From: Flectonema sp. DT1601
Taxonomy: Eukaryota
Assembly: GCA_964019425.1 (NCBI GenBank)
Contig: OZ025785.1
Coordinates: forward strand, 1 to 64,000
Length of the DNA: 64,000 nucleotides
Direction of reading: 5' to 3'
The position numbers and the translations under genes were made by a program. A model generated the notes under the pieces. The model searched no databases, was not told the origin of the DNA, and was given only the letters and a program-made list of their open reading frames with translations. Shown here piece by piece: positions 1 through 41,882 of the stretch. Position 1 is the stretch's first letter, and each line of letters opens with the position of its first letter.

Positions 1-3000
1 AGGGAGGGTTGCCTGTCACAGGCGATCTCGGCCCTAGACGCGCCGCCGCCAGCAGAACGAACCGAGAAGGTGCTGGAGCAGATGCGCACCCTACACCCGA
101 GGGCGAGCGGACCCCCATCGGCCACGGCAGGGCAGGAGGTGCAGATAGCAGAGGTGGAGCTGCTAGCATGCCTACGCTCCTTCCACAGGGGGTCGAGTGG
201 AGGGCCTTCGGGCCTCGCGCCGCAACACCTGAAGGACGTGGTGGAGCGGGGTGAGGTGCCGGGGCTGGTAGCCTCGATCACGGAGGTGGTGAGGATTCTG
301 GCGAACGGGAGGGCGCCGCGGGAAGTAGCGCCGCTGCTGGCGGGGGCGAACCTGACGGCGCTGGAGAAAGAAGGGAAGCCGGGGGAGCACCGGCCAGTCG
401 CGGTGGGGGAAACATGGAGGCGGCTGGTGGCGAAGATCCTGTGCGGGGCATACAGGTCCCAGGCGAGGAGCTCGTTGCTAGAAGTGAGACAACTGGGAGT
501 AGCGGTGTCGGGGGGAGTGGAGGCGGCGGTGCACACCCTGCATGAGTTCCGCGCGGAGCACGCGCTCTCGTCACAGAAAGTGTTCGTGAAGATAGACTTC
601 TCGAACGCCTTCAACTGCGTGAAGAGGGGGGCGTTCCTGGATTCGACGAGGGATACCCTGCTGGAGAGCTGGGTCAGCTGGTGTTACGGAGCGCCGACGT
701 GGTTGCTATTTGGGGACGAGAGGCTGAGCTCGGAGGAGGGTGCTCAGCAGGGGGATCCGTTGGGTCCCTTGCTGTTCTCGTTGGCAATCAAGCCGGCGCT
801 GCAGAAGGTGTTAGAGGCGAAGCCGGAGTTGGCGTGCTTCTACCTGGACGATGGGCTGGTGGCGGGCACCCTGGAACAGGTGGACAAGGCCCTCCAAATC
901 CTGCAGAAGGAGACGGCGGAGCTGGGGCTGACGCTGAGGCCGGACAAGTGCCAGACACACGTGCTCGACTCAGCCCAGAACACCCTGCCCATGGGGTGGG
1001 GGTTGGAGGGGATGAGACCCCCACTGTACAACGGGGACTTCCTGGGGGCACCGTTCGGGACGGATGAACACTGCCAGGAGTTCGTCGACAGGAAGGTGGC
1101 GCAGCTGGAGAAGAAAGCGGAGCTGCTAGCAGACCTGCAGGACCGGCAGGTGGCCATGGTGCTCCTAAGGCAATGCATGGGCTTCTGCAAGGTGACCCAC
1201 CTGATGCGATGCTGCACGCATGGGAAAATGGACACCTCGATGCGGAAGGTGGACGAGCTGATGAGGTCCACGGCGAGCCGAGTGTTGGGCCTGACACTGG
1301 AGGGGCCAAAGTGGATGCAGGCACAACTGCCGACCCGGATGGGGGGATTGGGGCTGCGGTCATGTGCAGAGCACAGGGGAGCAGCACTACTGGGATCCCT
1401 GGAGTTAGTCCAAGGGGTGAGCAAGTCACTATGGGAGGGGTTCAAGGGTGTGCTGATGCCAGCACTGAAGAAGGGGTTGAACCTCGCCCTCCCGGAGGAG
1501 CTAAGGATAGAAGAAGACGGGCCCGGGCCGAACCCCCAGAGACTGTCCTCGGCGAAACTGGACCAGGTCAAGAGAGACTGCCTGCTGGCGGGGGCGGATG
1601 ACCCGCGCGATAAAGGGAGGCTGCTCTCTCTGCGCATGGATAAGGCGAGCGCATGGCTGCAACAAGCAGATGAAGAGTGCGCGATGGACCCAGAGACGTT
1701 CAGGATCGCATGTGGGATGCGATTGGGCGCAGCGCTGTTCGCAGAAGGGGCAGTATGCAGGATATGCTCAGGCCCGCAGGATAGGCAGGGATACCATGCC
1801 TCGATCTGCATCAAGAACGGGCACGTGCACCAGCGACACGAGAGGGTGAAGGAGGAGTTCATCTCCATCTTTAAGCAGGCGGGATTGCCGCTGCTGAGAG
1901 AACCCAGCCACCTACTGGGACCCAACAAGCAGAGACCGGGGGACTGGTACTGCCAAGAGGGGCTGAGGGAGGGGAGAGGCAGAGCCTTCGACATCACGGT
2001 GGTAAACCCGGGGAAAATTAAAGTATATAAAACCCCGGGGCAAGCCGCGAGAGAAGCAGAGTCCCTGAAAGGGAACAAGTACGCGGAGCAGTGCACGAAA
2101 CACGGGATTAATTTCTCGACAATCGCGCTGGAAGCGTACGGAGGGATGGGACGGGAAGCTGTGGGGACCCTGAAGAAGTTGGTGCAGATCTGCGCAACGA
2201 ACTCGACGGTGCCACACCGGGAGATCGCGGGGGAGATGGCGAGGAGGATCTCGACATCGGTGGTAGTGGCGACGGCGGAAGCACTGAGAGCGAGGGAGGC
2301 GTCGGTGGCGATGGACTCGGTGAACCCATTGCCAAGGACGAAACCGCCGCCCGAGATGACGGAGAAGCCGACACCACAAGAGAGAGAACCAAGACCGAGA
2401 GCGGAAACGGAAGAGATCCAGCAGCCGGAAGCAATGTTGCAGTCGGCAGGACCGAACCCGACGATGAGTGGTTTGCCGAACATCGGGAACTCCTGCTACC
2501 TCAACGCGTCCGTACAGTGCCTGCTGAAGGGCACGGCACTGACACAAGTGCTGACGGGGAAGGAGGAAGTGGGGATGTCGGGCCTCCTGAGTGGAGTGGT
2601 CAAAGGGAGTGGGGAGTGCCTGGAGAAGCTGTCCAAGATGTTCGACCCGCTACAAGACAGGCGGCAGGGGGAGGTAGTAGGAACCCTGACGTCCATAGTA
2701 GACGCCCTGTTGGAGGAGAAGAAAGAGGAGTGCGAACCGTTGTTCTCGGCAGTACAGCTGAAACAGCTGGTCTGCACGGGATGTGCGGACGCCTCCGGAT
2801 CGACGGATGAGTTGACGCTGATCCCACTGTGTGGCCGTACACCACAAGTGAGGCTTCAGCCGACGAAGGAGAGAGTCGAGCGGTCCTGCGAGAAGCTGTG
2901 CGGCAGCAATGAGGCCACGTTGGAAGAGAGTTTCGCCTCGCTCCCAAGCTCCTTGATCTTCCAGAGAGACAAGCAGGACACGCAAGGGTCCTTGGGATGG

Positions 3001-6000
3001 GAAGAGCGCTTCCAGGTGCAGGTCGGGGAGAGGGTGATGACGTACCAGCAAACGGGAGCGATCGCACACCTCGGGAGTGACAACGCGGGGCACTACGTGT
3101 CATACACGTGGGACGGAGTAGGCTGGCAGAAGCAAGACGACAAGGCAATAAGCCAAGTGTCGACAGAGGAGATCCACGGTACGAGACCAGTAGTAGTGGT
3201 CTACTCGAGGGTAGAGGGATCGACCCAAGAGGACGTCGGGGTGCCGGTGAGATGGATTCCGGTGGCGAACAAGGACCGGATGGAGGTACGCGAGGCACCG
3301 CCGTCGGAGGAGGACACCGCGGGGTACACGTCCAGGGAAGAGGCGGAGTGTGTCCTCCGGACGCGAGTAATAGGGGGGCAGGCACAGCGCAAGCTGCTCC
3401 TACTGGTATCGAGCGTCTGGAACGCGGAGATGGAGAAGCTGGGGGCGGCGGCATGCCTGATACACATGGGAACGCTCGACAGGAGGTTCACGTGGTCGGG
3501 CTGCCTACCGACATGGGACGAAGCGACGGCGGAGTACGTGGCAGCGCTGCTAGGGCTCAACGCGATCAGGGAGAGATCGCAACTGCTGGGGGGTGAGACA
3601 CAGATCGAGGTGGTCACACCGCAGCAGGGGTGGGGAGTCGAGCAGCAGGAGGCGCTGAAGTTGGTAGCGCTCCCGTCGGTGATAGAACACCAGGTGACGG
3701 AAAGCCCCCGAGGGGTGGAGAACCTGGCCCTCTGGGAAGCGGAGTCGGCGGCGTGGGACGAGCCGGTGGAGCTCTCGGAGGACGGGCTCGACTACCTGGT
3801 GATCGAGCTGGAGATGAATCTGGGGCTGTCCCATTTGAGGGGAAAGACGGCGGAACCGGTTGAATCCCAGTCGCTCCCGGGAGGGTCGACGGCGTCAGGC
3901 GAAGACAGACCACGAGCCGAAGCGCCGGCCCAGGAGGAAGCGCGGACGACGGACGCACAAGGAGCGGAAGCAGTAGGGCTGAGAGACGAGCCAGCACAGG
4001 AAGTGGGACAACCCGAGGAAAAAGAGCACCCACCCCCCGACCCCCCGTCGAAGGAGGAGAAGCTGTATGCGGTGGCGGTGGGATGGAAACCGGGAGTGTA
4101 TGCATCGTGGGAGGAGGCGAAGGCACAGACGGAAGGGTGCCCGAATGCGACACACCAGAGTTTCTCCTCCAGGAAGGAGGCGGACAGGTTTGTAGAGAGG
4201 TGGCAGCCGGAGACCAGGGAACCGACCCGGGCCACGGAGGGAGTCAGCCCACGTAAGTGGTACGCAGTGGCGAGGGGCAGGGCGGTAGGCCTGTTCCAAT
4301 GCTGGAACGAGGCGAACTCGATGGTGTCAGGCTACGCGGCGGCGAGACACAAGAGTTTCGCAAGCAAGGGGGAGGCGGAGGGATACCTCCGAACCCACCT
4401 GCTGGGGGAGGTGGTGGGGGAAGTAGGGACGAGGTACACCTTGGTGTACGCGTGCGAGGTAGACCCGGTAACGGGCCGTCTGGGGGCGGCGGCGAGCTGG
4501 CTGGACACACACCGGTTCGAGGTGTTGGGCACATGGTCAGCTGGCCTGCCAGCGGGAGACACACACGGGGGGCGATACTTCGCAGCCCTGGTGGGGCTGG
4601 TAGCGGCCAAGGCGTGTGGAGGCCTCGTCCCAGCGGAGGCATCCCTGCTGCTGCGAGGAAGCACGACACACTGGTCGACGGACCAGAGAGAGGTGCTGGA
4701 GGAGGCGGATTTGATGGGGAGGCGTACGACGCTGGTGGAGATGCCAGAGGGGATGAGAACACACGCGACGGAGGAGGCGGAAAAAGCGGCGAAAGAGGGC
4801 TCGACCTCAGTGACGGAAGCCGTGATGAAGGTTTTCACAGAGGGGGCAACGAACTGCCTGGGACACGGGACACGGACGGGGAGTCCCTTCACGGTGCGGT
4901 GGGAGGGAAGACAACTGCGTCTGGAACCCCGGTACACGGAAGGGGGGACGGGATCGTCAGGCGGCCGAGAGTCGGTGGAAGGAGAAGACGCGAGGGTGGA
5001 GGGCCGAGACGAGCAGAGCCCGGTCCCAACCCCGAAGGGGGCTGTACAAAGGGTAGAGGCGGGAGTCCTGGAGTTGAGCTCGGAAGGGTCGGAGGGAGAT
5101 GACGATAGATCATCCTCCCCAGCGACAGGGCAGGACGAAGGGAACGGTTCCATGTCGGGAGGCTCCTTGGGGAGTCCAGGGACGTCGGACATGGAAGCGG
5201 AAGAACAGACGGACGAAAGGGACCAGTCCGTAGACCCGTCGGCAGCAGAAACCTCAGGCGAAAACCATCACCTGGCCGAGGACCTGCAAGCCGAGAAGGG
5301 GGACGAGCTGGACGAGACGTCCCACCACTCAGGAGAGCCACCGTCGTCAGACGGCATGGACGGAGTGGAGGGGTTGGAGGACCTGGAAGACTCACAGTCG
5401 GAGATGGAAGTCGACGGAGAAAATGTGACGGAAGGGTCAGTAGTCCAGTACGTCGAGGAGACGTCAGAGGACGTGGTCCAAGTGGCAGAGTCGGACACAG
5501 AGGAGGAGGGATCGTCAGACTCCCAAATGACCATGACGGTCGATGAACAGGAATGGGAAGAGGGAGCGGCGCCCGAGGGGAACGCAGGTCAGATGGCCTG
5601 GATGCTGGGACTACACCCAGAAGGGGGGAACGCGGAAACACGACGGGAGGGCCAATCGGAGCCCCTTTCAAAGCTGGTGAACTCAGGCGAAACAAAACCA
5701 ATGGCCGAGAGATCCAGTTTGGGGGCGAAGATGGGACCACGCGCAGTGGGTAGTGACGGGAGCGGGGAAGACGCAGAGAGATCGCCGGGCACGGTGTCGA
5801 CACCGAGCACGAGAGGGAGGACGAAGTACAGAAAGGGAATGGAGGAGGAGAGGGAGGAGTGTGTGTCGCCGAAGACAAATACGGGAAGGGGACGCACGAG
5901 AGGCCGGAAGGCAAAGACGGGGGCAAAGGGGGCCGGAAAGGAGGACCCAAGTCCGCAGGTGTTGCAGGCGGAAATGGGAGAGTCCACCCCGAGCTCAGGT

Positions 6001-6432
6001 GAACGGCAGGCGAGGAGGAGGTACAGGAAGGGAGAAGAGAGGGAGAGGATAGAGGTTCTCTCCCCAGACCCGAGCAGGAAAGCGAAGAGGAAGAGACGCA
6101 AGCAGAAGGAACCGGAGCCAGTGGAGGGCACCACGAGGGAACAGGCGCCGCGGAGTTACAACAGGAAACCCACACTGCGTCGGGTAGGTAAGGGAGACAC
6201 ACCCGACACAATGGGGTACGCACACGGGCCCCCGGGCTCCCTGACCTCGTTCACGGACGCGGGCGTACGCCCGGAGCCGGCGGAACGAGACGGACAAGGT
6301 GTGGCAGGAGCAGAGTTGGTCACAAGGTCGTCGTCACAGAGTGAGAAAAGCACCCAAGGAGAGATGAGGGAGAGAGAAGGGGATCCAACGCGAAGGGTCC
6401 TGGACTTCTCGTCGAAAGGGGGAAGGCGCTAG
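1..6432 (+). CDS. Retrotransposon polyprotein (5'-open): RT, zinc knuckle, RLE, USP/UCH peptidase C19, RNase H-like fold, two RNase H1 hybrid-binding (Cauli_VI-like) domains, second RNase H-like fold, acidic/basic disordered tail
   Basis: Frame is open from base 1. RT motifs: RPVAVGE..RRLVAK, DFSNAFN, QQGDPLGPLLF, YLDDG (841), QLPTRMGGLGL. CxxC..H...C at ~1756-1809. RLE motifs: RH, RPGD, FDITV, E..K, F..IALEAYGG. USP Cys box GLPNIGNSCYLNASVQCL (~2470) and His box HLGSDNAGHYVSY..QDD (~3067-3141). Two YAVAxG..G.Y..W.E...G...H.SF...EA motifs (~4060-4200, ~4255-4392). Confidence 0.9.
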   Translation, partial: REGCLSQAISALDAPPPAERTEKVLEQMRTLHPRASGPPSATAGQEVQIAEVELLACLRSFHRGSSGGPSGLAPQHLKDVVERGEVPGLVASITEVVRILANGRAPREVAPLLAGANLTALEKEGKPGEHRPVAVGETWRRLVAKILCGAYRSQARSSLLEVRQLGVAVSGGVEAAVHTLHEFRAEHALSSQKVFVKIDFSNAFNCVKRGAFLDSTRDTLLESWVSWCYGAPTWLLFGDERLSSEEGAQQGDPLGPLLFSLAIKPALQKVLEAKPELACFYLDDGLVAGTLEQVDKALQILQKETAELGLTLRPDKCQTHVLDSAQNTLPMGWGLEGMRPPLYNGDFLGAPFGTDEHCQEFVDRKVAQLEKKAELLADLQDRQVAMVLLRQCMGFCKVTHLMRCCTHGKMDTSMRKVDELMRSTASRVLGLTLEGPKWMQAQLPTRMGGLGLRSCAEHRGAALLGSLELVQGVSKSLWEGFKGVLMPALKKGLNLALPEELRIEEDGPGPNPQRLSSAKLDQVKRDCLLAGADDPRDKGRLLSLRMDKASAWLQQADEECAMDPETFRIACGMRLGAALFAEGAVCRICSGPQDRQGYHASICIKNGHVHQRHERVKEEFISIFKQAGLPLLREPSHLLGPNKQRPGDWYCQEGLREGRGRAFDITVVNPGKIKVYKTPGQAAREAESLKGNKYAEQCTKHGINFSTIALEAYGGMGREAVGTLKKLVQICATNSTVPHREIAGEMARRISTSVVVATAEALRAREASVAMDSVNPLPRTKPPPEMTEKPTPQEREPRPRAETEEIQQPEAMLQSAGPNPTMSGLPNIGNSCYLNASVQCLLKGTALTQVLTGKEEVGMSGLLSGVVKGSGECLEKLSKMFDPLQDRRQGEVVGTLTSIVDALLEEKKEECEPLFSAVQLKQLVCTGCADASGSTDELTLIPLCGRTPQVRLQPTKERVERSCEKLCGSNEATLEESFASLPSSLIFQRDKQDTQGSLGWEERFQVQVGERVMTYQQTGAIAHLGSDNAGHYVSYTWDGVGWQKQDDKAISQVSTEEIHGTRPVVVVYSRVEGSTQEDVGVPVRWIPVANKDRMEVREAPPSEEDTAGYTSREEAECVLRTRVIGGQAQRKLLLLVSSVWNAEMEKLGAAACLIHMGTLDRRFTWSGCLPTWDEATAEYVAALLGLNAIRERSQLLGGETQIEVVTPQQGWGVEQQEALKLVALPSVIEHQVTESPRGVENLALWEAESAAWDEPVELSEDGLDYLVIELEMNLGLSHLRGKTAEPVESQSLPGGSTASGEDRPRAEAPAQEEARTTDAQGAEAVGLRDEPAQEVGQPEEKEHPPPDPPSKEEKLYAVAVGWKPGVYASWEEAKAQTEGCPNATHQSFSSRKEADRFVERWQPETREPTRATEGVSPRKWYAVARGRAVGLFQCWNEANSMVSGYAAARHKSFASKGEAEGYLRTHLLGEVVGEVGTRYTLVYACEVDPVTGRLGAAASWLDTHRFEVLGTWSAGLPAGDTHGGRYFAALVGLVAAKACGGLVPAEASLLLRGSTTHWSTDQREVLEEADLMGRRTTLVEMPEGMRTHATEEAEKAAKEGSTSVTEAVMKVFTEGATNCLGHGTRTGSPFTVRWEGRQLRLEPRYTEGGTGSSGGRESVEGEDARVEGRDEQSPVPTPKGAVQRVEAGVLELSSEGSEGDDDRSSSPATGQDEGNGSMSGGSLGSPGTSDMEAEEQTDERDQSVDPSAAETSGENHHLAEDLQAEKGDELDETSHHSGEPPSSDGMDGVEGLEDLEDSQSEMEVDGENVTEGSVVQYVEETSEDVVQVAESDTEEEGSSDSQMTMTVDEQEWEEGAAPEGNAGQMAWMLGLHPEGGNAETRREGQSEPLSKLVNSGETKPMAERSSLGAKMGPRAVGSDGSGEDAERSPGTVSTPSTRGRTKYRKGMEEEREECVSPKTNTGRGRTRGRKAKTGAKGAGKEDPSPQVLQAEMGESTPSSGERQARRRYRKGEERERIEVLSPDPSRKAKRKRRKQKEPEPVEGTTREQAPRSYNRKPTLRRVGKGDTPDTMGYAHGPPGSLTSFTDAGVRPEPAERDGQGVAGAELVTRSSSQSEKSTQGEMREREGDPTRRVLDFSSKGGRR

Positions 6433-7164
6433 GGACTCCACGAAGGAGGTCTCAAGAGCCGAGGAAAAGACAGAGCCAAGACCCCAGAGCCAACCCAAAA
6501 CACATGGTAGAGGACGAGGGAGAACAAGAGCGGGAGCGAGGTTAGAAACGTGACCAAAGCCCCCGCGAAGCAGGAGACACAACCTGCAACCAGACCCCCC
6601 CAAAAAAAAAAAAAAACCCCGGTCAACGAGGCAAACTCGGACCAAAACATGCTTTTCACCCCCCCCAGGAAACACCGACCAGTGGAGCCAAAGGCCGCAC
6701 ACATATTATAAAAATCAAAGGCCGCCCCCCAACCCAAGAAAAGGATGAAAAACTTTCAAGCGAAAAAACTTGACGTCCGTACGCCCCAGAGATCAAAGGA
6801 CGGACGACTCACACCCCCTTCTTTCGCCCCATTTTATTTACTGGTACAGCGACAAATGTAAAGCTGGGTAGACGACGAATTATCTTTTGTGCACAGAGAC
6901 AAGGGATCCATGAGAACAAAGGATCAAGAGAAGAAGGGCACATTCCCCATCCCAAACCCAGAAACATGAGAACTCATTAAATTGAAGGGTCATGTCTTTT
7001 CAAGTCGAAAAATGCTTAAATGCTGAAGAAGACTGTCGTCCCCAGCTCGCGGGTTTTCCCTGTCGCTGTATGGCGAGACAACGATCAGAGTCAGTAGAAA
7101 GATTGTACAAATTTGTTGTATAATGAGAAAGGACAAAGAAAGTAGTTTCCATTTTATCTTCCCG

Positions 7165-7201
<37 letters not shown>
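1..7201 (+). mobile_element. CRE-clade-like non-LTR retrotransposon (RT + CCHC + restriction-like endonuclease, long C-terminal extension); 5' end lies outside the window
   Basis: One long ORF to 6432, a ~730-nt 3' UTR (6433-7164) and a 37-nt poly(A) at 7165-7201. Strong G+A strand bias unlike the AT-rich host DNA. The 3' UTR is repeated at 8357-8913. Confidence 0.92.
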
Positions 7202-7206: not shown

Positions 7207-7288
7207 GGCGAGATGGCCGAGCGGTCTAAGGCGTTGCGTTAAGGCCGCAATCTCTTCGGAGGCGTGGGTTCAAACCCCACTCTCGTCA
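7207..7288 (+). tRNA. trnL-AAG: tRNA-Leu (anticodon AAG)
   Basis: Acceptor stem GGCGAGA/TCTCGTC+A, D-arm TGGCCGAGCGGTCTAAGG, anticodon stem TTGCG/CGCAA with loop TTAAGGC, long variable arm, T-arm GTGGGTTCAAACCCCAC, followed by a TTTT Pol III terminator. Confidence 0.95.
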
Positions 7289-7310: not shown

Positions 7311-7690
7311 AGAATCCATGTCCTATTGTAGTCAGCTTCTGAAAAACCGGAAACATCGATAGAGGCGGGAACTCAATAAACCTGTTTCCCTTAAAGGAAT
7401 AAAAAACATCAATCAGTGTCAAATACTTTGGTGGAAGGACATAACTTCAATTTGATGTGAGTCAACCTGCTGAAGAATGATAATTAAACTGCCCAGCTTT
7501 TGACGGTAGTGTAGTGGACTACCGTGGCTGTAACGGGTAACGGGGAATTAGGGTTCGATTCCGGAGAGGGAGCCTGAGAAACGGCTACTCAGACATTGTA
7601 CGTTGCTTGGACACCAGGCAGCTGCAGCACTTGAATCGAATGCTCAACTCCATTCAATATTTCTTTCTGTGTCCCAACTCATCCTGTACT
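7311..7690 (-). pseudogene. Heavily deleted relic of the LRR gene family (one LRR piece plus pieces of its upstream region)
   Basis: 7311-7375 matches LRR repeat DNA (tcctattgtagtcagcttctgaaaaaccggaaacatcgat). 7441-7490 and 7592-7682 match the LRR upstream region (e.g. gacaccaggcagctgcagcac...gtgtcccaactcat, cf. 16887-16962). Confidence 0.7.
7489..7588 (+). rRNA. ~100-bp fragment of 18S rRNA (not a full gene)
   Basis: Contains the conserved SSU stretch TAACGGGTAACGGGGAATTAGGGTTCGATTCCGGAGAGGGAGCCTGAGAAACGGCTAC; flanks are not rDNA. Confidence 0.9.
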
Positions 7691-8356: not shown

Positions 8357-8913
8357 AAACTCGGACCAGAACATGCTTTTCACCCCCCCCCAGGAAACAC
8401 CGACCAGTGGAGCCAAAGGCCGCACGCATATTATAAAAATCAAAGGCCTCCCCCCAACCCAAGAAAAGGATGAAAAACTTTCAAGCGAAAAAACTTGACG
8501 TCCGTACGCCCCAGAGACCAAAGGACGGACGACTCACACCCCCTTCTTTCGCCCCATTTTATTTACTGGTACAGCGACAAATGTAAAGCTGGGTAGACGA
8601 CGAATTATCTTTTGTGCACAGAGACAAGGGATCCATGAGAACAAAGGATCAAGAGAAGAAGTGCACATTCCCCATCCCAAACCCAGAAACATGAGAACTC
8701 ATTAAATTGAAGGACATGTCTTTTCAAGTCGAAAAAATGCTTAAATGCTGAAGAAGACTGTCGTCCCCAGCTCGCGGGTTTTCCCTGTCGCTGTATGTCG
8801 AGACAACGATCAGAGTCAGTAGAAAGATTGTACTAATTAACAGTATAATGAAAAAGGACGAAGAGAGTAGTTTCCATTTTATCTTCCCGAAAAAAAAAAA
8901 AAAAAAAAAAAAA
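8357..8913 (+). mobile_element. 5'-truncated copy of the CRE-like element (3' UTR + poly(A) only)
   Basis: Near-identical to ~6633-7201 with scattered substitutions and indels; ends ATTTTATCTTCCCG + A24 (8890-8913). Confidence 0.92.
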
Positions 8914-9136: not shown

Positions 9137-11764
9137 TTAATTAGATTTGAACATCTCACAAGACGTCGTTGGAGTGATTTGGCCAACGTTACCTCCCACC
9201 ACAGAGAATTTACCTTTCTCTCCCAAATAGTATTGCAATTCCAACTTGCCGTCTCTTTTACGCCACACTCGAAGGTTATCAGATGCTGTTACTATAACAT
9301 TGCCATCAGATGAAACAGCGAAAGCGCGTACCTTCTTAGAATGGCCTTCTAATGTGTGTTTTACTACACCCTCAGAAGACACCAAAGTGATCCCTTTTCC
9401 ATCAAAAGCTACAAAGTCATCGTTTCGAAGTCTAATCGGGAGGATGGAATCATAATGCAGAGAACATCCGACGGCTTCACCTGTTCCTGCCTTCCATTGA
9501 AAGACTTTACCATCGGAACTCCCAACAAGAAACTTCCCGCACTCCGAGAATGTGACGGCATCAACACTCTGCTCAGGTATCGTTAACTTATGTTTCAACG
9601 TGTCTGGTGAGAGAAGCAACACGTTCTTCCGAGTGGCACATGCTACGTTCCCTGCTGTGCATGCGATGTCCACAATTTCCCCAACTGAAGAACTGCTCTT
9701 ACTCTTAGGCTGCAAGGTTTCGTTGAGGACTTCCAGTTTGTCTTTAGCTCCAACGAAGATTGACAACGATCCCCCCTCCTGGTAGGCAGCCATACATGAA
9801 TAGGAAATATTATTCCTTGTATCGACTGTGGTCCAATCATCTGTTGAGAATAATTTGATTTCACTTCGTGTCATAGTGACGAGGTACGATGAACAGAGAG
9901 AGACAGAGACGACAGAAGGATCTTCTGAATTACTGCTGGCCCGCAGTCGACGGAGTTGAGCACCAGTTCGAAATTTCCAAATTATGACAAGGCCACCTTC
10001 ACAGCCGCTTGCAAGCAGTTCTGAATAAATTGAAACGTGAGTGACATTCTGCTTGTGCCCTTGGTGGTGTACTGGTAAATAATCATCTTCACGTGTGTTC
10101 CACAATCGAACAGTGCGATCATTGTCGCTGTATCCCGAAGTGGTAATATATTCACCATTACTTGAGTATCTTATTGACATTACTTTACATCCATGTCCAT
10201 GAAGTTTTTTGACGGGCTGCTTCGTTTGCAACCTAATTATTTCAACCTCATTGTCACCTCCCGACGCTACGTAATTCCCACAAGTCGAAAGTGCCAGCCC
10301 ACCGGCTTTCCCTAAAAAGTTCGTCCGCGGTTTGTACTCTTTATCCCAAATGTGAATGGTGAACACACTCGCATTTTCGCTCACCGAAGCAAAACTGATT
10401 TCATTGTTACTAACTCCCATCGGAAGAACTGCAATTTGCTGCGGAATACCAGAATCAATAACAGAATCAGTTATGATGAGTTCCTCATACGAATCCTCTC
10501 TTCGCCTCCATATCACGATTTCTTTACCCTGTGCACAAACTAAGTCACCCGATGAAGTGTATTTTATACTCTTTGCCGTTCCTCCCCTTTTTCTTGGGAT
10601 TCTCTCATGATTTCCCCAAAATAGTTTTTGTTGATCATCCTTGACATCCCACACCATGACAGACGGCTTGCCTCCGTACTTTAGAGCAACTGCCAAGTGC
10701 GCATCATCAGGTGAGAAGACTAGGTCGTTAAGTAAGATATCCCCCTCTTCATGTTTAAGACAATTATACTTCCCTTCTTGGAATGGACTCCAGATAACCA
10801 CTCTCGCAGAATGATTATTAGTACCTGCATGAGAGCAAGTAGCAAGTAGAATGTTTTTATCATCTTTCGCACTGTTACAAGCAATTCCACTTATAAACAA
10901 CGGATGGTACTCACTCAGATTTATCTTCTTAACAACTTTCCCAGTAGCTGATGAGTACAATCCGACATGATTATTGAAAGCGGCGACGATGTATTCGCTG
11001 GATGACGTGAATATCGATTTCACTTTTGCATCAGTCACACTAATCGGAGGTACCCTCATATCAAACGTCGGATTATGAATTTCTGAATAGTCAAAATCGC
11101 AACGCATCATAAGGCACCTCTTGAAGTCACAATTGATGAGAAACGATCCTTCAAAATTCACTTCAACTAAACAACCACCACAAAAACTCACATCCTCCAG
11201 GTGCAGACCGGACAAATCTTCACCAAATAACGTGCAACCTGAAGAGACTAACAACGACAATGCGTTGCTGGCGATGGTACGTTCCTTCTCAACTTCCTTC
11301 TCAACTTTGGATGTCTTAACCAGAGGAAGTAATTTCTTACTCAACTCGTCGTGGTTTCCAATACTTTGTTGAATGAGTTTGTGCTGTTCTAAGATTCCTG
11401 GCTGGGTTTTCGAAAAGCGTAATTTCGACAGCATCTCCCTCAACTCATCTTCACCACATTTGGCAATGTGACTGGCAATTAGATATTCAGCCAACGTTTT
11501 GTGATGAAATCTTACAACACCCATCTCGTAGTACACGGGCAGAAATATCACCAGTCTCTCGAACTCGGCTATCTCTTTGTCGTCTTTGAAATAGTTTGAC
11601 GCCTTTCCTCCCCAGTGCCCCTGTTGCAGCATACGACACGCCAGCATCTCTGCCATGCGTTTCACATCCGCAGATTTTATTAGTTTTTCTTTCTTTTCAT
11701 CTTCCAACTGTTTCTTAATAAATCCATCGATAAACGCTTTGTAAACCGTGGATTTACTTGTCAC
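9137..11764 (-). CDS. Last exon of an NLR-like STAND protein: NACHT-associated helical/winged-helix region, pentapeptide repeats, WD40 propellers
   Basis: RFHHKTLAEYL motif; DLSGLHLEDVSFCGGCLVEVNFEGSFL pentapeptide-like run; WD40 motifs GHGCKV..DRTVRLWN, GHKQNV..IIWK, GHSKKV..LRVW. Acceptor AAACAG|GTG at 11765/11764. Confidence 0.85.
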   Translation of the reverse strand: MTSKSTVYKAFIDGFIKKQLEDEKKEKLIKSADVKRMAEMLACRMLQQGHWGGKASNYFKDDKEIAEFERLVIFLPVYYEMGVVRFHHKTLAEYLIASHIAKCGEDELREMLSKLRFSKTQPGILEQHKLIQQSIGNHDELSKKLLPLVKTSKVEKEVEKERTIASNALSLLVSSGCTLFGEDLSGLHLEDVSFCGGCLVEVNFEGSFLINCDFKRCLMMRCDFDYSEIHNPTFDMRVPPISVTDAKVKSIFTSSSEYIVAAFNNHVGLYSSATGKVVKKINLSEYHPLFISGIACNSAKDDKNILLATCSHAGTNNHSARVVIWSPFQEGKYNCLKHEEGDILLNDLVFSPDDAHLAVALKYGGKPSVMVWDVKDDQQKLFWGNHERIPRKRGGTAKSIKYTSSGDLVCAQGKEIVIWRRREDSYEELIITDSVIDSGIPQQIAVLPMGVSNNEISFASVSENASVFTIHIWDKEYKPRTNFLGKAGGLALSTCGNYVASGGDNEVEIIRLQTKQPVKKLHGHGCKVMSIRYSSNGEYITTSGYSDNDRTVRLWNTREDDYLPVHHQGHKQNVTHVSIYSELLASGCEGGLVIIWKFRTGAQLRRLRASSNSEDPSVVSVSLCSSYLVTMTRSEIKLFSTDDWTTVDTRNNISYSCMAAYQEGGSLSIFVGAKDKLEVLNETLQPKSKSSSSVGEIVDIACTAGNVACATRKNVLLLSPDTLKHKLTIPEQSVDAVTFSECGKFLVGSSDGKVFQWKAGTGEAVGCSLHYDSILPIRLRNDDFVAFDGKGITLVSSEGVVKHTLEGHSKKVRAFAVSSDGNVIVTASDNLRVWRKRDGKLELQYYLGEKGKFSVVGGNVGQITPTTSCEMFKSN

Positions 11765-11841
11765 CTGTTTGTTGATTTTGACTTTAGCTGTAACCTCCTT
11801 GCATTGATCAAAAGAAACCACCAGTATAGAATTACACATAC

Positions 11842-12567
11842 CCCTTCGTGATGAGCCTTGATCGCCATATAGAGGAGCTGTGGGCTGCTCAGCTCATCCC
11901 AAACTCCTCGTTGCTTCAGGTTCTCAACATTTTTCTGATCCACATCTTCGTTGTGCGATATCATTTTTTCTCCAAACTCGTCCTTCTGTTCGGCACTAAA
12001 AGGACGCAGATAGTAAGAATTAGCATTCCTAAGGAGATCTTTCGGAGTGAGTTCTCGTCGGATGAAATTTTCAGTTCTGCTCGTGAGGATAACCCACGAT
12101 TTTGACAACAGCAACGGGTTGAGTTTCAGTAAGTCGGTACCGGAGTCACCGACAACGTTTGCAGTTCCTTCATCAAAGGAATCAAGAACTATAACAACAG
12201 TGTAGGTGAATAGTTGTTTGATATCACAATCAGGTGGAAGCATATGCTTCACGATGTACTTGTCGATAGCATGCGGCTCGAATGCATTTCCGACACTTCC
12301 CATCGACACAAATATTGGGAAGTATTTCTCACTCAATTCTCTAATTAGTTTGACCCCCGCAGAAGTCTTCCCCCCTCCAGCCTCTGACTGCAGTACGAGT
12401 GGGGGTCGGTCGTCACTCTCAAGAAGGTCTTTAATCAATTCAGTTAAGCTGATGTCTTCAATTCTACATAAAGTTGGATCGACGTAACAACATTCGAATT
12501 TTTTAAAAACGAATTCGGCAAGAATAAACCACGCTTGACGCATGTGCTCCAACTGCTCCGATCTAGT
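11842..12567 (-). CDS. NACHT NTPase exon of the NLR-like protein
   Basis: Walker A QSEAGGGKTS (~12390-12361), Walker B VVIVLDSFDE, sensor ILTSR, LRPFS, SPQLL. Donor GGG|GTATGT at 11842/11841 joins in phase 0 to the WD40 exon. The 5' boundary (CCACAG|ACT) is inferred. Confidence 0.8.
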
Positions 12568-12654
12568 CTGTGGTGGTTTACTTTCTTGTCTACCAACTAA
12601 AAAAACCAAAAATAAGGGACTGCAATAATAAACCGAGAAATTTGATGGAAGGTT

Positions 12655-13001
12655 CGGTAAACAATACACTCCTACAAAACATAGAGAACGTTCTAGTGTT
12701 TGATGCTCTTCGAGGAATATTTGTTGCAATTTTCGCAGAAAGCGGGTTTGCTTCATATAAAGATGGTCTGCGATAATAGAGTGAAGCCCATCCACATTCT
12801 CCTCCGTAAACCTTCTCCAGATGATTGATGTAAGAAAAAGTGCTTGAATTGAAGTTACGCATCCTTTGCTAATTCTTCATCACCAGAAACTCATCCAGTT
12901 TAAAAATAATGGCAACTGTCGATTCCCTGTCCTCTGTTTTGAGGAGCCATCAGAGGTTCATGGCGGTAAACAATACACTCCTACAAAACATGGAGAACGT
13001 T
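12655..13001. repeat. 38-bp direct repeat enclosing a ~270-bp insert that carries an inverted LRR-gene 5' fragment
   Basis: cggtaaacaatacactcctacaaaacat(a/g)gagaacgtt at 12655-12692 and 12964-13001. 12844-12965 is the LRR upstream region plus the codons for MATVDSLSSVLRSHQRFMA on the + strand. Confidence 0.85.
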
Positions 13002-13058: not shown

Positions 13059-15023
13059 TTATAAAGAAAAAGTTAAATTACACACCTTAACGAAATTAGT
13101 AATCCGCTCAATGCTTTGCAAAATGATGATGTCATTGGTGCATCCGAAAATTCGCAACGTGCTGGGATTGTACACCCACAAGACTCGGAAGGTGGCATCA
13201 GGCCCGAACAATGACTCTTGCTCACTTTTTCCATAAACGGATAGCGGAGCGATATTCGGAGCAAAACCGAAGACCGCTAACAAACAAGAACGTTCGCTTC
13301 CCATAAAACAGTTCGTGGCATCCACTTTCCGTGAAGTTGAAAAGAAATGATTAAACGACTTTATTTCACCTACTTCGAAATTATTTGCAGAAAATCGGTT
13401 GTCTCCCCTCCACAGTAAGTGGTGCTCTGAAGGAAATCTCTGCAATGCCTTCTGTAAATGATAAATAAGTGGTCTGAGATAGTCGACGTATTTTTTATTT
13501 TCATCATCTGTCTCGTTCAGTGCGAGGCCGTACATTGATTCCTTAATCTTAGAAGCGACGTAAAACTCTTGCGAAGTGTAACAAACGGTAGCGATTAACA
13601 TCTCCAAGGCATCTGCTGGATCGCTGCCTATCAGACTAGCCATCCAAGGCGTAATTTCATTATTCTCCAAGTTTTTCCCAAATGTTGTTATCTTTTTTTG
13701 AATTTGCCTAACTACGTTGGCAAACTGATTTCGTTTCCACTTGAGGGGTGACAAGGGTGAACTGATTCCCTCTTCCTCGTTGGTAAACCATTTTATAATT
13801 TCGTTTTTCTTGGGAACGTAGTCGTCACTGAGAAAGTGATACACCCCACAGTTTGCAAATCTTTCTGAACTACACTGACGTGCACCACCCTCTTCGGGAC
13901 TGTCGTATTCTGGCGCTTTTAGGCTTTTTTTTTCATTCCACTCTTTAATAAGTTTCTTTAAGATTCTGATGTTTTTTCCATACGACTTTAACAGTTCCTT
14001 CAACACCTCTACTGACAACCCTCCTTGAGCTCCGTTGACTAAAGGCGTTTCTTTTGATGAGTTCTCCTGTACTTTTGATTGTTCATCCATGTTTTTAATC
14101 AGTAATTGAGTCATGGCATTGTGACCACACCAACAAGATCCATGAAGACTGTTTGATCCTTCGGGAGTTGTTATTTTCAGGTCGTCCTTTACGGTTTCAG
14201 AGCTCTTAAGCCATTTCTCCATCAAGTCATGATTACCACTTCTGGCAACAATGTAAATCATAGGCCACTTAGACTTCCCAAAACATCTGCCGCTGGGGAT
14301 CTCCATTTTCTTAAAATCTTCCCAGGAAACATATTCAATAAGGGAAGGCATCATTCTGTAACAGGATTTTTGTTCATCGCTCTCATCGTTGTTCAGAACT
14401 ATGTCGAGTGCTCGTGCGCATTTGATTTTTTTATCTTCCTTACTCAGTTTGCTTAGAAGTATCTGAAGACATTCGCAATCACTTTTTTCTAAAGAGTAGA
14501 CCACAGTTGAGACGTTAATCTCACCGCCAATTAGATTCAAAACCGTTTCCATCAACTTCGGGAAGTATCTGACTACGATATTTAATAATTCTTTCATAGT
14601 CTCGCTGTTATCCTTAAACTTATCAATCGCCCCATCATGTCTACCATACTTCGCAATGTGACTGGCAATTAGATATTCAGCCAACGTTTTGTGATGAAAT
14701 CTTACAACACCCATCTCGTAGTACACGGGCAGAAATATCACCAGTCTCTCGAACTGCTCGGCTATCTCTTTGTTGTCTTTGAAAAAACTCGACGCCTTTC
14801 CTTCCCAGTGCCCTTGTTGCAGCATACGACACGCCAGCATCTCTGCCATGCGTTTCACATCCGCAATTTTTTCTGGTTCTTCTTTTTCGTCAGACAGCTG
14901 TTTCTTAAGCTGTTTCTTAATAAACCCGTCGATGAACTCTTCGTAATCTGCGGACGTACTTGTCACCTGTTCGTAACAATACTGGCGCTCCACTAGTTGC
15001 ATAGCATCGAGGTGCTCTGTCAT
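13059..15023 (-). CDS. Ankyrin-repeat + R-S-E-class ADP-ribosyltransferase protein with an N-terminal NACHT-associated helical segment; probably the first exon(s) of the NLR-like gene
   Basis: ART motifs LWRG (~13409), FFSTS (~13340), SEQESLF (~13223). Ankyrin-like IVARSGNHDL, SLHGSCWCGHNAMTQLLI, TPLVNGAQGG. N-terminus is nearly identical to the start of the WD40 exon. Candidate donor AAG|GTGTGT at 13086/13085. Confidence 0.85.
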   Translation of the reverse strand: MTEHLDAMQLVERQYCYEQVTSTSADYEEFIDGFIKKQLKKQLSDEKEEPEKIADVKRMAEMLACRMLQQGHWEGKASSFFKDNKEIAEQFERLVIFLPVYYEMGVVRFHHKTLAEYLIASHIAKYGRHDGAIDKFKDNSETMKELLNIVVRYFPKLMETVLNLIGGEINVSTVVYSLEKSDCECLQILLSKLSKEDKKIKCARALDIVLNNDESDEQKSCYRMMPSLIEYVSWEDFKKMEIPSGRCFGKSKWPMIYIVARSGNHDLMEKWLKSSETVKDDLKITTPEGSNSLHGSCWCGHNAMTQLLIKNMDEQSKVQENSSKETPLVNGAQGGLSVEVLKELLKSYGKNIRILKKLIKEWNEKKSLKAPEYDSPEEGGARQCSSERFANCGVYHFLSDDYVPKKNEIIKWFTNEEEGISSPLSPLKWKRNQFANVVRQIQKKITTFGKNLENNEITPWMASLIGSDPADALEMLIATVCYTSQEFYVASKIKESMYGLALNETDDENKKYVDYLRPLIYHLQKALQRFPSEHHLLWRGDNRFSANNFEVGEIKSFNHFFSTSRKVDATNCFMGSERSCLLAVFGFAPNIAPLSVYGKSEQESLFGPDATFRVLWVYNPSTLRIFGCTNDIIILQSIERITNFVKVCNLTFSL

Positions 15024-15200
15024 TTTGTTTTCCTGTAGAATTATTGTAATACGAATTAAAAGAACGGCAGTCTAAATAGAGCATCGCAGGGCTAATTCTG
15101 GTCCCTACTGGTTTCGCACACATAACGTTATTTACTCCAAGGGCCGGTTAATTAATATACAACTAATTCTGATAGCCAGCTGGTAATAATAAAATGATGG

Positions 15201-21700: not shown

Positions 21701-21831
21701 ATTCCTTTCGGATTCAGGCTTGGGATGTTCCCTGTTCACTCGCCGTTACTGGGAGAATCGCTGTTGCTTTCTTTTCCTGTGCTGAGTGATATGCTTAAGT
21801 TCAGCACGTAGATCTTCAACTGCTGAGGTCG
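21701..21831 (-). rRNA. ~130-bp fragment of the 5' end of 28S (LSU) rRNA
   Basis: Reverse complement reads GACCTCAG...GCTGAACTTAAGCATATCACTCAGCACAGGAAAAGAAAGCAAC...CAGTAACGGCGAGTGAA, the conserved LSU 5' end. Confidence 0.88.
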
Positions 21832-38373: not shown

Positions 38374-41300
38374 GTTAGTTAGTTAGTTAGCGAGTCCGAC
38401 ATACAATCGAGTACCGGTTAGCTAGACACAACAGGGTGGAACGGTTAACCACCTGTGAGTCCCCAATACTACGACTTTATGTCAAACCTAATCCCTGAGA
38501 GGATCACTTTTTTAGCTCCAGCGAGGAATTCTAATGTTCGAGAGACCCGAATTCCTCAATGCTTCGGCCTTGACCGGTTCGCTAGCAAATTAACAGAGTT
38601 TGGGGAGGGGAAAGGAAGATGATAATGATAATGATAAAACGAAGAAAACAAAATAAAATAAAATAAAAAAAAAAAATAAAATAAAATAAAATAAAATAAA
38701 ATAAATCAATAAATAAACAAAATAAAGGAAGGGGATAGAGAATTCAGATCTGTTGAATAATAGTAATCCTGGATGATTTTGACTGCTACTGATGTTGATT
38801 TAAGTGAATACTGCCAAAGTCACATGCCAAGGGATATATCGATATAGGACCTAGTAGGAGGTCCACGGACCCTGTGGTCAAACCATTTGGGATCAATTCT
38901 TTTGTAGTCGGCGTAGTGGATCTTATTCAAAAGATCTGTGAATTGCGTTCCCACGATACCGAGGTAGCAATACAGTTCCACTGTCCATAGATGTTCATGT
39001 ATCTCCTTGATATCGGTGCAGTCGTATGCTTGCGTGATGGCCTGCATGACTTCGGTCGTGTCATTCGGGGATAACTTTGGAAGTTTGGAGTACCTGTTGA
39101 GGTGCCACAGTAGTTTCTGTCTTGGTATGGCTACACGTAGCGGGAAACTCATTAAGTAGATGTTCAACTCCTTCAGCATGGCGGCCAAAAATGGTTGGTT
39201 GTCGGTTTCGAAGAAGGTATGATGATGCTGGCCTACATTTTCCGTATTATCTATCGGAAGAATTGGGAAGAACTTTCGAACTATCGGACTCACTCCCTTG
39301 CACTTAGAGAGGAGGTGGTGTGCATCTGTTTCGGTGTGATCACAGAATTGGCAATCGGTTAGGCCCAAACCTGGCAGCTTAACTAATTTGTGGTGGCCAG
39401 TGCGTATTTGTGCAATACTCACTTCGTCCTCCCGAGAGATTTCAGGATGAAACTTCTGTACTCTCCCAGCTGACGTAGCTAAGCAGTGTACGTGCATTGT
39501 GTCGCGGGATCTGAGCCATTCTCTTCTCACCTGGCTGATTATGGAACATTGGGCCATGCGGTAGTCGAACTCAACTTCCGTGAGCGGCAGGTCGGAAGCC
39601 GCCGCTTTGGAGGCTAGGTTGTCCGCCAATTCATTCCCTATCACACCACAGTGTGAGGGTACAAATTGAACTGATATCGGACGGTTAAGTGAGGATATCA
39701 GTTTAAATATCTCGCTGTTAGTACGCGAGGATTGGCATAGGTAGCCTTTAGCCAGGCTACTTAGCGACGACTGGCTGTCCGATATGACGTGAACGCGGCC
39801 ATATGGGAGCCGTGCTGAGTTCTCGCGGATGAGATCAAGGGCTGAGATTAGTGCGCGCTGTTCGGCGTTGTAAATCATGAGTGACGGATGGTAGCGTTGT
39901 TGCTTCTTGTAGCACTTGTTCCGGACGACGAGTACTGCTGCGTTGCCACAGTGGTAATTGCCATCCTTGTCCTCAAAATACGAAGCATCAGTGTATACTC
40001 TGGCAACTGCCGGCGGAAGAGACTCCAACGAAGCGATGGCAAATTTGAGGTTGAGTCCCGAGTCCTGTGACTTTCTGAAATCTCTGTTAGGTATAATTGT
40101 TACGTTGGGTGGTGTTAACCACGGTGCTTGGTAATGTTGTAAATACATCTGCGATCTAAGTCGGGGTGTTGGATAGCGTCTAGATGAACGCGAGGCTGAA
40201 GCTTCCCACGGAGTCTCCTCTTTGTTGCCTTTGAAGAGACCCCATGTCGGTAGATTATCATTGTATCGCTGGAATCGTTCATAGCACAGTGCTAGGGACT
40301 TAGTTAGATGTTGCTGAAACGGTAGAATATCTGACTCAACTGATACTGCTGAGGTCGACGCCGATTGGGAGCAGCCCGTTAGTCTCAACATGAGTTTCCT
40401 GTGGACCGTGCTTACGTGTGTCCATGATTTCTCGCGGAGGAATGGGGCGTATGCGGCAAGGCCGTGGAATGCCCTAGCTAGTACCAAACCATTCACCAGT
40501 TGTCTCAAAGTTTCCGTCTTGATCCTGAAGGATGAGATCATCTTTAGAAGACCAATTCCACGCTTCAGTGTGCTTTCCATTTTGTTCAATTGTGGAATAA
40601 AGGAGAGACGGTCGTCGATCAACACACCCAGATATCTCGCTTGTTCCACGCGCCTAAGAGGCTTGGCTGTAGTCATCGTTAGTGCCTTCTTACTCACTCT
40701 GCTTCGAAATTCTGAACGAGTCGACACCTTCCTTCCGTTTACAGTTAGGGGAAAGGTTGTTCCTCCATCGCGATTCAGTTGTGCTCCAGGTCCTATGTCT
40801 AAATCATCTAAAAGGTCCATCGGACTCGAAATGGACTCCAGTTTTATAGTTGATGGAAGATACAGTCTAGGGAATCTACAGAGCCCCCTGCCAGGGTCAA
40901 ACCGTGTGCCAATGGCTAGAAACTCCGTCTTCTCTATTGACAGACTCATTTCTGAGTCTACTAGCCAGCCCTCCACTTGCCGTATTGCCTCATTGGCTTT
41001 ATCCTCCAGATCACCAACTTTCGTACTGCTAACAAATATTGATAGGTCGTCAGCATATAGAAGCTTCAGATCGGCACTCTTGATCGACTGTGGTAGGGAG
41101 TTGACGTATAGTCTGAAGAGGAGAGGTCCAAGGATGCTACCTTGCGGGACACCTTTGTTACATTTGACCCTCTTCGAGAAGGATTCGCCATATTGCAGAC
41201 GGGCCGACCGGTGAGTTAAGAAATCGGAGATCCATCTAACGAAAGGCAACGGTAGGAGTGGTTTGAGTCTTGCGATTAACTTATTATGATTAACATTATC

Positions 41301-41882
41301 AAATGCACCTGAGATGTCAAAGAACAGCAAAACCCCACATCTGTTAAAATCGCTTCTTACTTCGGATGCTGCATTTGTTAAGACTGCAATGTTTTCTTCA
41401 GTAGTCCTGCCTGGGACGAAACCAGCTTGATTGGGGTCAAGGTTACCTTCCAAAATGTGCTCCAGCCGCCGGAGGATCAGAGATTCAATGAATTTAGCCA
41501 CAGTTGATGTCATCGAAATAGGACGGTACGACGATGGTTCCACTGGATCTTTTCCATTCCCTTTGAGAAATGGAATTACGTTTGCTTCTTTAAAACAATC
41601 TGGCAGAATGCCGCGCTGTAGTGACCAGTTGGCAATCCTGAGTAGGACCTCCTTCATCCCGGTTCCTAAGTGTAGAATCATGTTATTCGTGATTGCGTCA
41701 GGTCCCGCACTATCGGTCTTCCTGAGCGAGTGGAGAACGGCCTGGGCTTCTTCCAAAGAGAAGGGTTTACACTCAGGGATTTCGAGGTCTTCTGGTTTTA
41801 CTGTTGGGGACTGTGATCTGCCTACATCGTTACTTGAGGGGAAAAAACGTTCCAACAGCGTCTTCAGCGGGGCTTGTGGTTT
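38374..41882 (-). mobile_element. 5'-truncated Ingi/I-group non-LTR retrotransposon (RT + RNase H + zinc finger) with a (CTAA)n tail
   Basis: 3509-bp insert in the array spacer; tail reads gttagttagttagttag on + at 38374-38390; 187-bp flanking duplication at 38187-38373 and 41883-42069; no APE domain present. Confidence 0.92.
38820..41882 (-). CDS. Reverse transcriptase-RNase H ORF of the Ingi-like element (5'-truncated; in frame with a spacer ATG at 42104)
   Basis: SAGPDAI, YRPISMTS, QAGF, DISGAFD, GVPQGSILGP, YADD (~41057-41046), YLGV. RNase H residues YTDAS, NAE, ISDS, SHCGVIGNELAD. CQFC..H...C. Confidence 0.9.
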   Translation of the reverse strand, partial: KPQAPLKTLLERFFPSSNDVGRSQSPTVKPEDLEIPECKPFSLEEAQAVLHSLRKTDSAGPDAITNNMILHLGTGMKEVLLRIANWSLQRGILPDCFKEANVIPFLKGNGKDPVEPSSYRPISMTSTVAKFIESLILRRLEHILEGNLDPNQAGFVPGRTTEENIAVLTNAASEVRSDFNRCGVLLFFDISGAFDNVNHNKLIARLKPLLPLPFVRWISDFLTHRSARLQYGESFSKRVKCNKGVPQGSILGPLLFRLYVNSLPQSIKSADLKLLYADDLSIFVSSTKVGDLEDKANEAIRQVEGWLVDSEMSLSIEKTEFLAIGTRFDPGRGLCRFPRLYLPSTIKLESISSPMDLLDDLDIGPGAQLNRDGGTTFPLTVNGRKVSTRSEFRSRVSKKALTMTTAKPLRRVEQARYLGVLIDDRLSFIPQLNKMESTLKRGIGLLKMISSFRIKTETLRQLVNGLVLARAFHGLAAYAPFLREKSWTHVSTVHRKLMLRLTGCSQSASTSAVSVESDILPFQQHLTKSLALCYERFQRYNDNLPTWGLFKGNKEETPWEASASRSSRRYPTPRLRSQMYLQHYQAPWLTPPNVTIIPNRDFRKSQDSGLNLKFAIASLESLPPAVARVYTDASYFEDKDGNYHCGNAAVLVVRNKCYKKQQRYHPSLMIYNAEQRALISALDLIRENSARLPYGRVHVISDSQSSLSSLAKGYLCQSSRTNSEIFKLISSLNRPISVQFVPSHCGVIGNELADNLASKAAASDLPLTEVEFDYRMAQCSIISQVRREWLRSRDTMHVHCLATSAGRVQKFHPEISREDEVSIAQIRTGHHKLVKLPGLGLTDCQFCDHTETDAHHLLSKCKGVSPIVRKFFPILPIDNTENVGQHHHTFFETDNQPFLAAMLKELNIYLMSFPLRVAIPRQKLLWHLNRYSKLPKLSPNDTTEVMQAITQAYDCTDIKEIHEHLWTVELYCYLGIVGTQFTDLLNKIHYADYKRIDPKWFDHRVRGPPTRSYIDISLGM

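Follow-up and report, generated by a model that had tools for sequence, protein, structure and literature searches.

We report that a ubiquitin-specific protease (USP, peptidase C19) is a constant component of a CRE-like, multi-copy retrotransposon that lacks long terminal repeats (a non-LTR element) of Flectonema sp. DT1601, where it lies C-terminal to the restriction-like endonuclease (RLE), and that its Cys/His/Asp triad is kept in three deeply diverged families. The element opens a 64,000-nucleotide stretch of contig OZ025785.1 (assembly GCA_964019425.1, positions 1 to 64,000, forward strand), hereafter the window. We give a probability of roughly 0.5 to the reading that this USP is a deubiquitinase (DUB) tethered to the element's reverse transcriptase (RT) and endonuclease, where it would clear ubiquitin from the element's own complex and so protect it against destruction by the host.

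The element is encoded on the forward strand, in frame +1, by a single open reading frame (ORF) at 1–6432 (2143 residues, stop codon at 6430–6432), the 5′ end of which is truncated by the window start, the upstream part lying beyond the window. The RT core (PF00078, residues 123–321) spans 367–963, with its YLDD motif at 841–852, and is followed by a CCHC zinc knuckle (1756–1809) and the RLE (1933–2310), whose motifs at 1933–2082, namely RPGD, the Asp in FDITVVNP, and KGNKY, are conserved in relatives. A Pro/Glu-rich linker (2311–2469) leads into the USP domain (2470–3213), past which the frame stays open for about 1070 further residues. These comprise an internally repeated domain of no assigned fold (first copy, 3325–4038), two RNase H1 N-terminal RNA:DNA hybrid-binding domains (HBDs; PF01693 at 4060–4191, and 4255–4392, the latter matching human RNase H1, 3bsu, with an E of 1.6e-7), the second copy of the repeated domain (4357–5019, BLASTP E of 9e-11 against the first), and a low-complexity tail, acidic then basic, with no Pfam match (5020–6429). 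Searching Pfam with the whole ORF gave an E of 1.8e-27 for the two HBDs (Cauli_VI). A sequence-only reading of this DNA had proposed that the frame runs past RT-CCHC-RLE into a peptidase C19 domain, and the unbroken frame and a UCH match above the cut-off bear this out. The 1373 stop-free codons 3′ of the RLE would arise by chance with a probability of ∼2e-20 at the given base composition. The codon usage of the USP is that of the element (third-codon GC of 0.76 and 0.79, respectively), unlike that of four other ORFs in the window (0.35–0.55). No 2A-like skip motif was found in 7 long ORFs. The repeated-domain pair flanks the HBDs, and the sister family described below may hold a similar pair; identification of this domain as RNase H, which it resembles by eye, is not supported, as no PDB entry matched and comparison with the RNase H of the window's own long interspersed nuclear element (LINE) gave a probability of 1.3%.

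The Pfam UCH profile (PF00443) matches residues 824–1068 (bases 2470–3204) over model positions 2–254 of 254, with an E of 7.3e-12 within the whole ORF and of 1.6e-14 when the domain is taken by itself (54.6 bits, the cut-off being 23.9); the profile check that the sequence-only reading had proposed therefore returned a full-length match. The domain matches 43 PDB sequences, every one of them a USP-family enzyme, with the Cys and His boxes aligned. The Cys box, GLPNIGNSCY (2470–2499), aligns with those of USP15, Ubp8 and USP8 and contains Asn827 (2479–2481) and Cys832 (2494–2496), presumably the oxyanion Asn and the catalytic Cys. Two finger-type cysteine pairs, CTGC (2773–2784) and CEKLC (2887–2901), are putatively zinc-binding and are both kept in the sister family. 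The His box, HLGSDNAGHY (3067–3096, with His1031 at 3091–3093), is followed by WQKQDDK (3124–3144, with Asp1046/Asp1047 at 3136–3141), and His1031 and Asp1046/1047 align with solved USPs. The Cys box, CxxC/CxxxC fingers, His box and QDD Asp listed in the earlier reading were all recovered; of its phrase 'catalytically intact', the triad stands, but the Q-x-D-x-x-E box, QGEVVG (2665–2682), is degenerate. The domain is quite probably an active cysteine protease.

The USP recurs in other copies of the element. A search with residues 100–1075 scored 3 proteins among 7989 candidates, one of which stands for the cluster to which the element itself belongs, with 35 members and 15 of these listed; 12 were compared by domain, the 3 left out being C-terminal fragments. 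The five listed copies whose sequence covers the USP all retain the Asn, Cys, His and two Asp residues, and four of these five are continuous from RT through USP. The expectation that other copies would keep Cys/His/Asp is thus upheld, and the window's USP is not a one-off chimera. Six of the 12 compared copies stop short of the USP domain; the copies are predicted proteins, so intact ones are favoured in the sample. Differences between copies amount to 4–5 of 250 residues in the USP, 0 of 199 in the RT, and 4 of 52 and 7–8 of 70 in the linkers. Two full-length copies, P0009 (2840 residues) and P0017 (2836 residues), are 98% identical and extend upstream of the RT, beyond the window, with the order leader, PxxLxGG motif, zinc finger, OTU domain and second zinc finger, the zinc fingers being recognised by eye. 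The OTU domain of P0009 (residues 327–413) scores 48.3 bits against a cut-off of 23.3 (E of 1.9e-12), with its Cys and His motifs present. In public sequencing data, parts of the element are found on contigs from two runs, which speak for presence only; one contig covers 2470–2669 with a single difference, and no contig listed from these two runs bridges the RLE-USP junction. Among the runs listed as containing the element there was none of RNA.

The sister family (P0005, 26 members) is 31% identical to the element over RT-RLE and has the order OTU, RT, RLE, degenerate USP-like domain, intact USP and two HBDs; the intact USP is 27.7% identical to that of the window and keeps the triad. A third family, from Diplonema papillatum (P0076/P0156; KAJ9436113.1, KAJ9438409.1), has 38 members, of which 15 are listed. 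Its full-length members are 3163 residues long with the order OTU-RT-RLE-USP, and its USP shares 20.0% identity with that of the window; Cys, His and Asp are all retained in 5/5 listed members spanning the domain. Both families keep more of the Q-x-D-x-x-E box than the window's USP does (QQDAHG in the sister family, QCDLGE in Diplonema). In seven further families an OTU follows the RLE, its Cys and His recognisable when aligned; six of these also have an OTU before the RT, and the seventh is cut short there. The USP of the sequence-only reading is real, but that reading overlooked the N-terminal OTU, the HBDs, the exchangeable C-terminal slot and the long further frame. The features of the CRE clade are found here, namely one ORF in which CCHC and RLE come after the RT, N-terminal zinc fingers, and a 3′ poly(A); this architecture, together with the automatic NCBI name of the nearest named relative, from D. 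papillatum ('SLACS 132 kDa protein'), points to membership of that clade. Judged by that relative alone, the host is probably a euglenozoan protist. Solved R2 proteins match the element weakly (best E of 2.2e-6). Among other CRE-like proteins (P0034, P0095 and P0108; P0140), Sgf11-type zinc finger matches lie before the RT, and one has a C-terminal MLLE domain.

A profile search gave 703 hits, of which the best 120 were inspected for domains. An RLE match was present in 119, 101 ended within 100 residues past the RLE, and PF00443 was listed in just two, the element's own family and D. papillatum P0076. As a metagenome control we took the best 80 of 384 confirmed CRE-like loci: none (0/80) matched USP, OTU or HBD profiles, and of the 59 whose RLE end is closed, 54 stopped within 65 residues. 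Since the window and sister USPs find each other at an E of ∼1e-13 for that database size, the control could have detected such a domain. In these samples the architecture is rare among CRE-like elements, and the earlier reading is not refuted on this point. A USP search of 1.84 billion representatives gave 310 hits at E ≤0.001; among the best 150, profiles found no RT, RLE, OTU or HBD, and the closest cellular USP was a single-domain match with an E of ∼1e-9 and ∼30% identity. The element's own family is missing from these hits, so that library is uninformative on spread. A protein search with the USP alone, over proteins of 448–2000 residues, gave 0 hits among 2524 candidates, which is weak evidence; a metagenome scan with one RLE-USP protein confirmed 0/166 pattern matches.

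A quick RT tree with 42 rows unites all ten DUB-bearing families (SH-like approximate likelihood ratio test, 98) and places the three USP families outside a nested OTU-RT-OTU group. A careful RT tree of 30 rows, 12 of the 42 having been dropped, joins the sister family with the seven OTU families at 96/89. The RT trees hold no named trypanosomatid CRE and no outgroup clade. N-terminal and C-terminal OTUs separate from each other at 86/91. The reading we favour is that the USP is ancestral and was replaced once by an OTU; when the three USP families were held together, their monophyly was not rejected (approximately unbiased test, p = 0.071), so the order of loss or replacement is suggestive only.

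A motif, P-x-x-[L/M]-x-G-G, resembling the C-terminus of ubiquitin, lies at most 150 residues before the N-terminal OTU in all seven families that have sequence there; the other three of the ten DUB families are without a pre-OTU region, one starting at MRGG. Shuffled 150-residue windows yield the motif in 0.6–2% of cases, and it occurs in 0/111 non-DUB relatives (110,231 residues) and 0/68 locus ORFs (65,419 residues). The stretch from RLE to USP holds no such motif in any of the families, the Pro/Glu-rich linker of the window included, and the LxGG-like strings downstream of the USP are not conserved and have no Pro. The leaders upstream of the motif contain hydrophobic stretches, and PxxLxGG is a candidate self-cleavage site. 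Families without a USP keep it, making the OTU or a host enzyme the more likely cutter. The earlier proposal of polyprotein processing thereby gains a candidate site, but the task would more likely fall to the N-terminal OTU than to the USP. Among viral enzymes, the USP-like PLpro of coronaviruses cleaves LXGG (PMC7464072) and an arterivirus OTU protease cleaves a putative RLIGG (PMC5695851). In two sister-family proteins, P0025 and P0027, the N-terminal 1300 residues hold, upstream of PxxLxGG, a long tandem 29-residue repeat that follows a signal-peptide-like start.

Our proposed mechanism would begin with removal of the hydrophobic leader by a cut behind the ubiquitin-like LxGG, as in viral protease/deubiquitinases; the OTU at the N-terminus, or else a deubiquitinase of the host, would make this cut. 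The USP would stay attached, since no PxxLxGG separates it from the RLE. Because related families fill the same C-terminal slot with an OTU, the slot would be maintained for deubiquitinase activity as such. The substrate would be the element's own ribonucleoprotein, with the HBDs keeping the complex on the RNA:cDNA intermediate. The OTU protease of turnip yellow mosaic virus (TYMV) both processes its own polyprotein and deubiquitinates its own polymerase (PMC5695851), and in mammals the host TEX19.1-UBR2 pair ubiquitylates and degrades L1-ORF1p (PMC5570191); these precedents give the logic, not proof, for the host here. More tentatively, and with the odds against it, this protist CRE-like lineage as a whole may work like an RNA-virus replicase polyprotein, in which the OTU would remove a membrane-targeting leader at the ubiquitin-mimic PxxLxGG, and an exchangeable C-terminal DUB (ancestrally USP, later OTU) would counter ubiquitin defence, with captured RNase H1 HBDs directing it to the insertion intermediate.

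Several points weigh against a tethered deubiquitinase acting on the element's own complex. The Q-x-D-x-x-E box reads RQGEVVG where USP8 has QQDSQE, and a loose form of the pattern is met by 65 of 76 cellular hits having both boxes. With the box lost, ubiquitin binding may be weak or changed; the box is common but not universal, and its loss is a caveat on ubiquitin binding and no defining loss. The AlphaFold models are poor (mean predicted local distance difference test scores of 37.8 and 40.4), so the fold call rests on sequence profiles; Foldseek on the second of these poor models returned USP-fold chains at template-modelling scores of 0.17–0.25. One own-family copy (P0008) keeps the Cys box and ends before the His box. 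The own-family copies are too young for selection to show: the low-complexity tail differs as little (2–8 of 503 residues) as the USP, so these copies cannot reveal it. The first of the sister family's two USPs is degenerate, and the D. papillatum family is without HBDs. The DUB group in the careful tree has 94/89 support with one long-branch non-DUB row and 53/6.6 without it, and the poorly resolved USP tree does not recover a single origin of the element USPs. PxxLxGG was defined post hoc, in families that are kin and against controls many of which are 5′-incomplete, and it lies outside the window. Ubiquitin-based restriction of retroelements is known from mammals, not from the element's host.

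The same deubiquitinase activity might instead be directed at the host, with ubiquitylated histones, clamp proteins or other chromatin and DNA-repair signals at the insertion site as substrates and the tandem HBDs holding the USP at the RNA:cDNA hybrid. Two HBDs follow the USP in two families, and USPs that act on chromatin, SAGA Ubp8 for one, are found among the best matches by sequence and by fold; a DNA-repair role has been proposed for transposon OTU and Ulp1 domains (PMC2836005). These USP matches are, however, generic, their scores barely differing among USPs, the D. papillatum element does without HBDs, and Pfam finds no chromatin reader domain, so we consider a chromatin or repair target possible but on the whole unlikely. 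We likewise rate as improbable that the USP fold is no longer ubiquitin-directed, and that it now cleaves either the element's polyprotein or a different ubiquitin-like modifier, or binds but does not cut. Such a change would fit the degenerate Q-x-D-x-x-E box, the compact, long-branch sequence, the LxGG-like strings downstream of the USP and the degenerate second USP copy retained by the sister family. It sits less well with the fuller boxes of the sister and Diplonema USPs, with a sole conserved candidate site that is also kept in families without a USP, and with downstream strings that are unconserved and lack Pro; replacement by an OTU, moreover, argues for a common ubiquitin-directed job.

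The proposal that the USP is neutral baggage, whether a piece of a host gene captured recently or once and now decaying, or an assembly chimera, is largely refuted already, and we regard it as very improbable. It draws on the similarity of the own-family copies, too great for selection to show, on the RLE-USP junction left unbridged by the contigs listed from two public runs, and on a USP tree that permits independent captures. Four other own-family predicted proteins, however, run across the junction unbroken, the domain order and triad persist at 20–28% USP identity and in a second named species, the USP shares the element's codon usage, and no close cellular USP exists among the 1.84 billion representatives.

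Like the element, members of the CRE clade (SLACS, CZAR, CRE1/2; PMC12278014) encode zinc fingers, RT and RLE in a single ORF and have a poly(A) end. The element differs in that its ORF runs ∼1370 residues beyond the RLE, with a USP and HBDs, and in its N-terminal OTU; trypanosomatid members insert in spliced-leader RNA genes, whereas no spliced-leader target is seen at the element's one 3′ junction. The words 'protease' and 'ubiquitin' are absent from the main text of that paper. Ubiquitin- or SUMO-type cysteine proteases are fused to other non-LTR RT proteins: NeSL and Utopia-1_TSP have an N-terminal Ulp1 (PMC4640811), Dualen/RandI a Josephin domain (10.1101/2021.04.23.441226, which also describes a Penelope-like element with a Josephin-like C-terminal extension), and a Symbiodinium ORF2p an N-terminal OTU, with Josephin and OTU domains on ORF2p-like proteins (PMC13405545). 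As far as the available text of these sources goes, each of the non-LTR cases has one protease class, N-terminal where placed, and none has a USP, whereas here two classes flank RT-RLE. Among DNA transposons, Ginger1 carries a C-terminal OTU or Ulp1, never both, an exchangeable slot like that of the element's lineage; Helitron carries OTU, Mutator Ulp1, and Trichomonas XP_001314237.1, the sole printed case we found of C19 on a transposon protein, joins a transposase to peptidase C19 (PMC2836005). These are DNA transposons, unlike the element, and the available text of that source describes no processing site. The coronavirus PLpro and the TYMV and arterivirus OTU proteases offer a functional likeness, a DUB inside a replicase polyprotein bearing a ubiquitin-tail-like site, with no sequence kinship claimed; cleavage and deubiquitination are demonstrated for the viruses and predicted here. 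A full-text literature search, with Repbase and subscription papers, which may hold an annotation, outside its scope, found no USP in a retrotransposon, no two DUB classes in one such ORF and no PxxLxGG site, and no retrotransposon with a USP is described in the available text of PMC9940879, PMC6338049, PMC6431247 and PMC10318531. Protease cargo on transposons is known (Ulp1, Josephin, OTU, one C19 transposase).

Why ubiquitin and SUMO proteases are widespread on transposons has been guesswork since they were first noted, and this lineage opens it to experiment. The enzyme is small and its catalytic mutant is clear, two unrelated DUB folds have been exchanged naturally in a single slot, a cleavage site is predicted, and the cultured model D. 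papillatum has members of the lineage. If the proposed mechanism is true, self-processing and a fight against ubiquitin signalling, both in the manner of RNA viruses, extend to a simple target-primed retrotransposon, and the USP family gains a compact, divergent member.

At the 3′ end, the 169 bases after the stop codon have a composition like the element's and run into an A15 tract (6602–6616, forward strand), a candidate poly(A) end beyond which GC falls from 0.59 to 0.46. This is followed by a 585-base unit (6617–7201, forward) that ends in A37 starting at 7165, and an intact-looking tRNA-Leu(AAG) gene (7207–7288, forward) begins 5 bases past the A37. This 585-base unit could either complete the 3′ untranslated region and carry its poly(A) tail, or be a distinct short element that has inserted into the tail. 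A second copy of 6633–7188, 96.8% identical and with an A24 tail, lies at 8357–8913 (forward) with no tRNA behind it. This 560–585-base poly(A)-tailed unit hence occurs twice, each time behind an A-run, and may be a short non-autonomous A-tract inserter. The tRNA-Leu gene adjoining A37 is a possible target, seen at one junction, the second copy of the unit being without a tRNA.

Rfam gives three matches in the window, one to a tRNA and the others to isolated fragments of 18S and 28S rRNA genes (7335–7622, forward; 21729–21808, reverse). The region past the tRNA-Leu gene is a mosaic that includes short pieces of a leucine-rich-repeat (LRR) gene repeat. The LRR gene array itself spans 15201–55927 (reverse), with a 3.29-kb tandem unit of ∼99% identity from 26.6 to 55.9 kb, and contains a second LINE (38820–42137, reverse) with RT and RNase H in one 1105-residue frame, which we take to be Ingi-like. 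At 9137–12876 (reverse), a NACHT ORF overlaps an ORF with pentapeptide and WD40 repeats in another frame, together forming an NLR-like gene, split or spliced. Adjoining it at 13059–15071 (reverse) is an ORF with ankyrin repeats and a weak ADP-ribosyltransferase match, which has a segment in common with the NLR-like gene.

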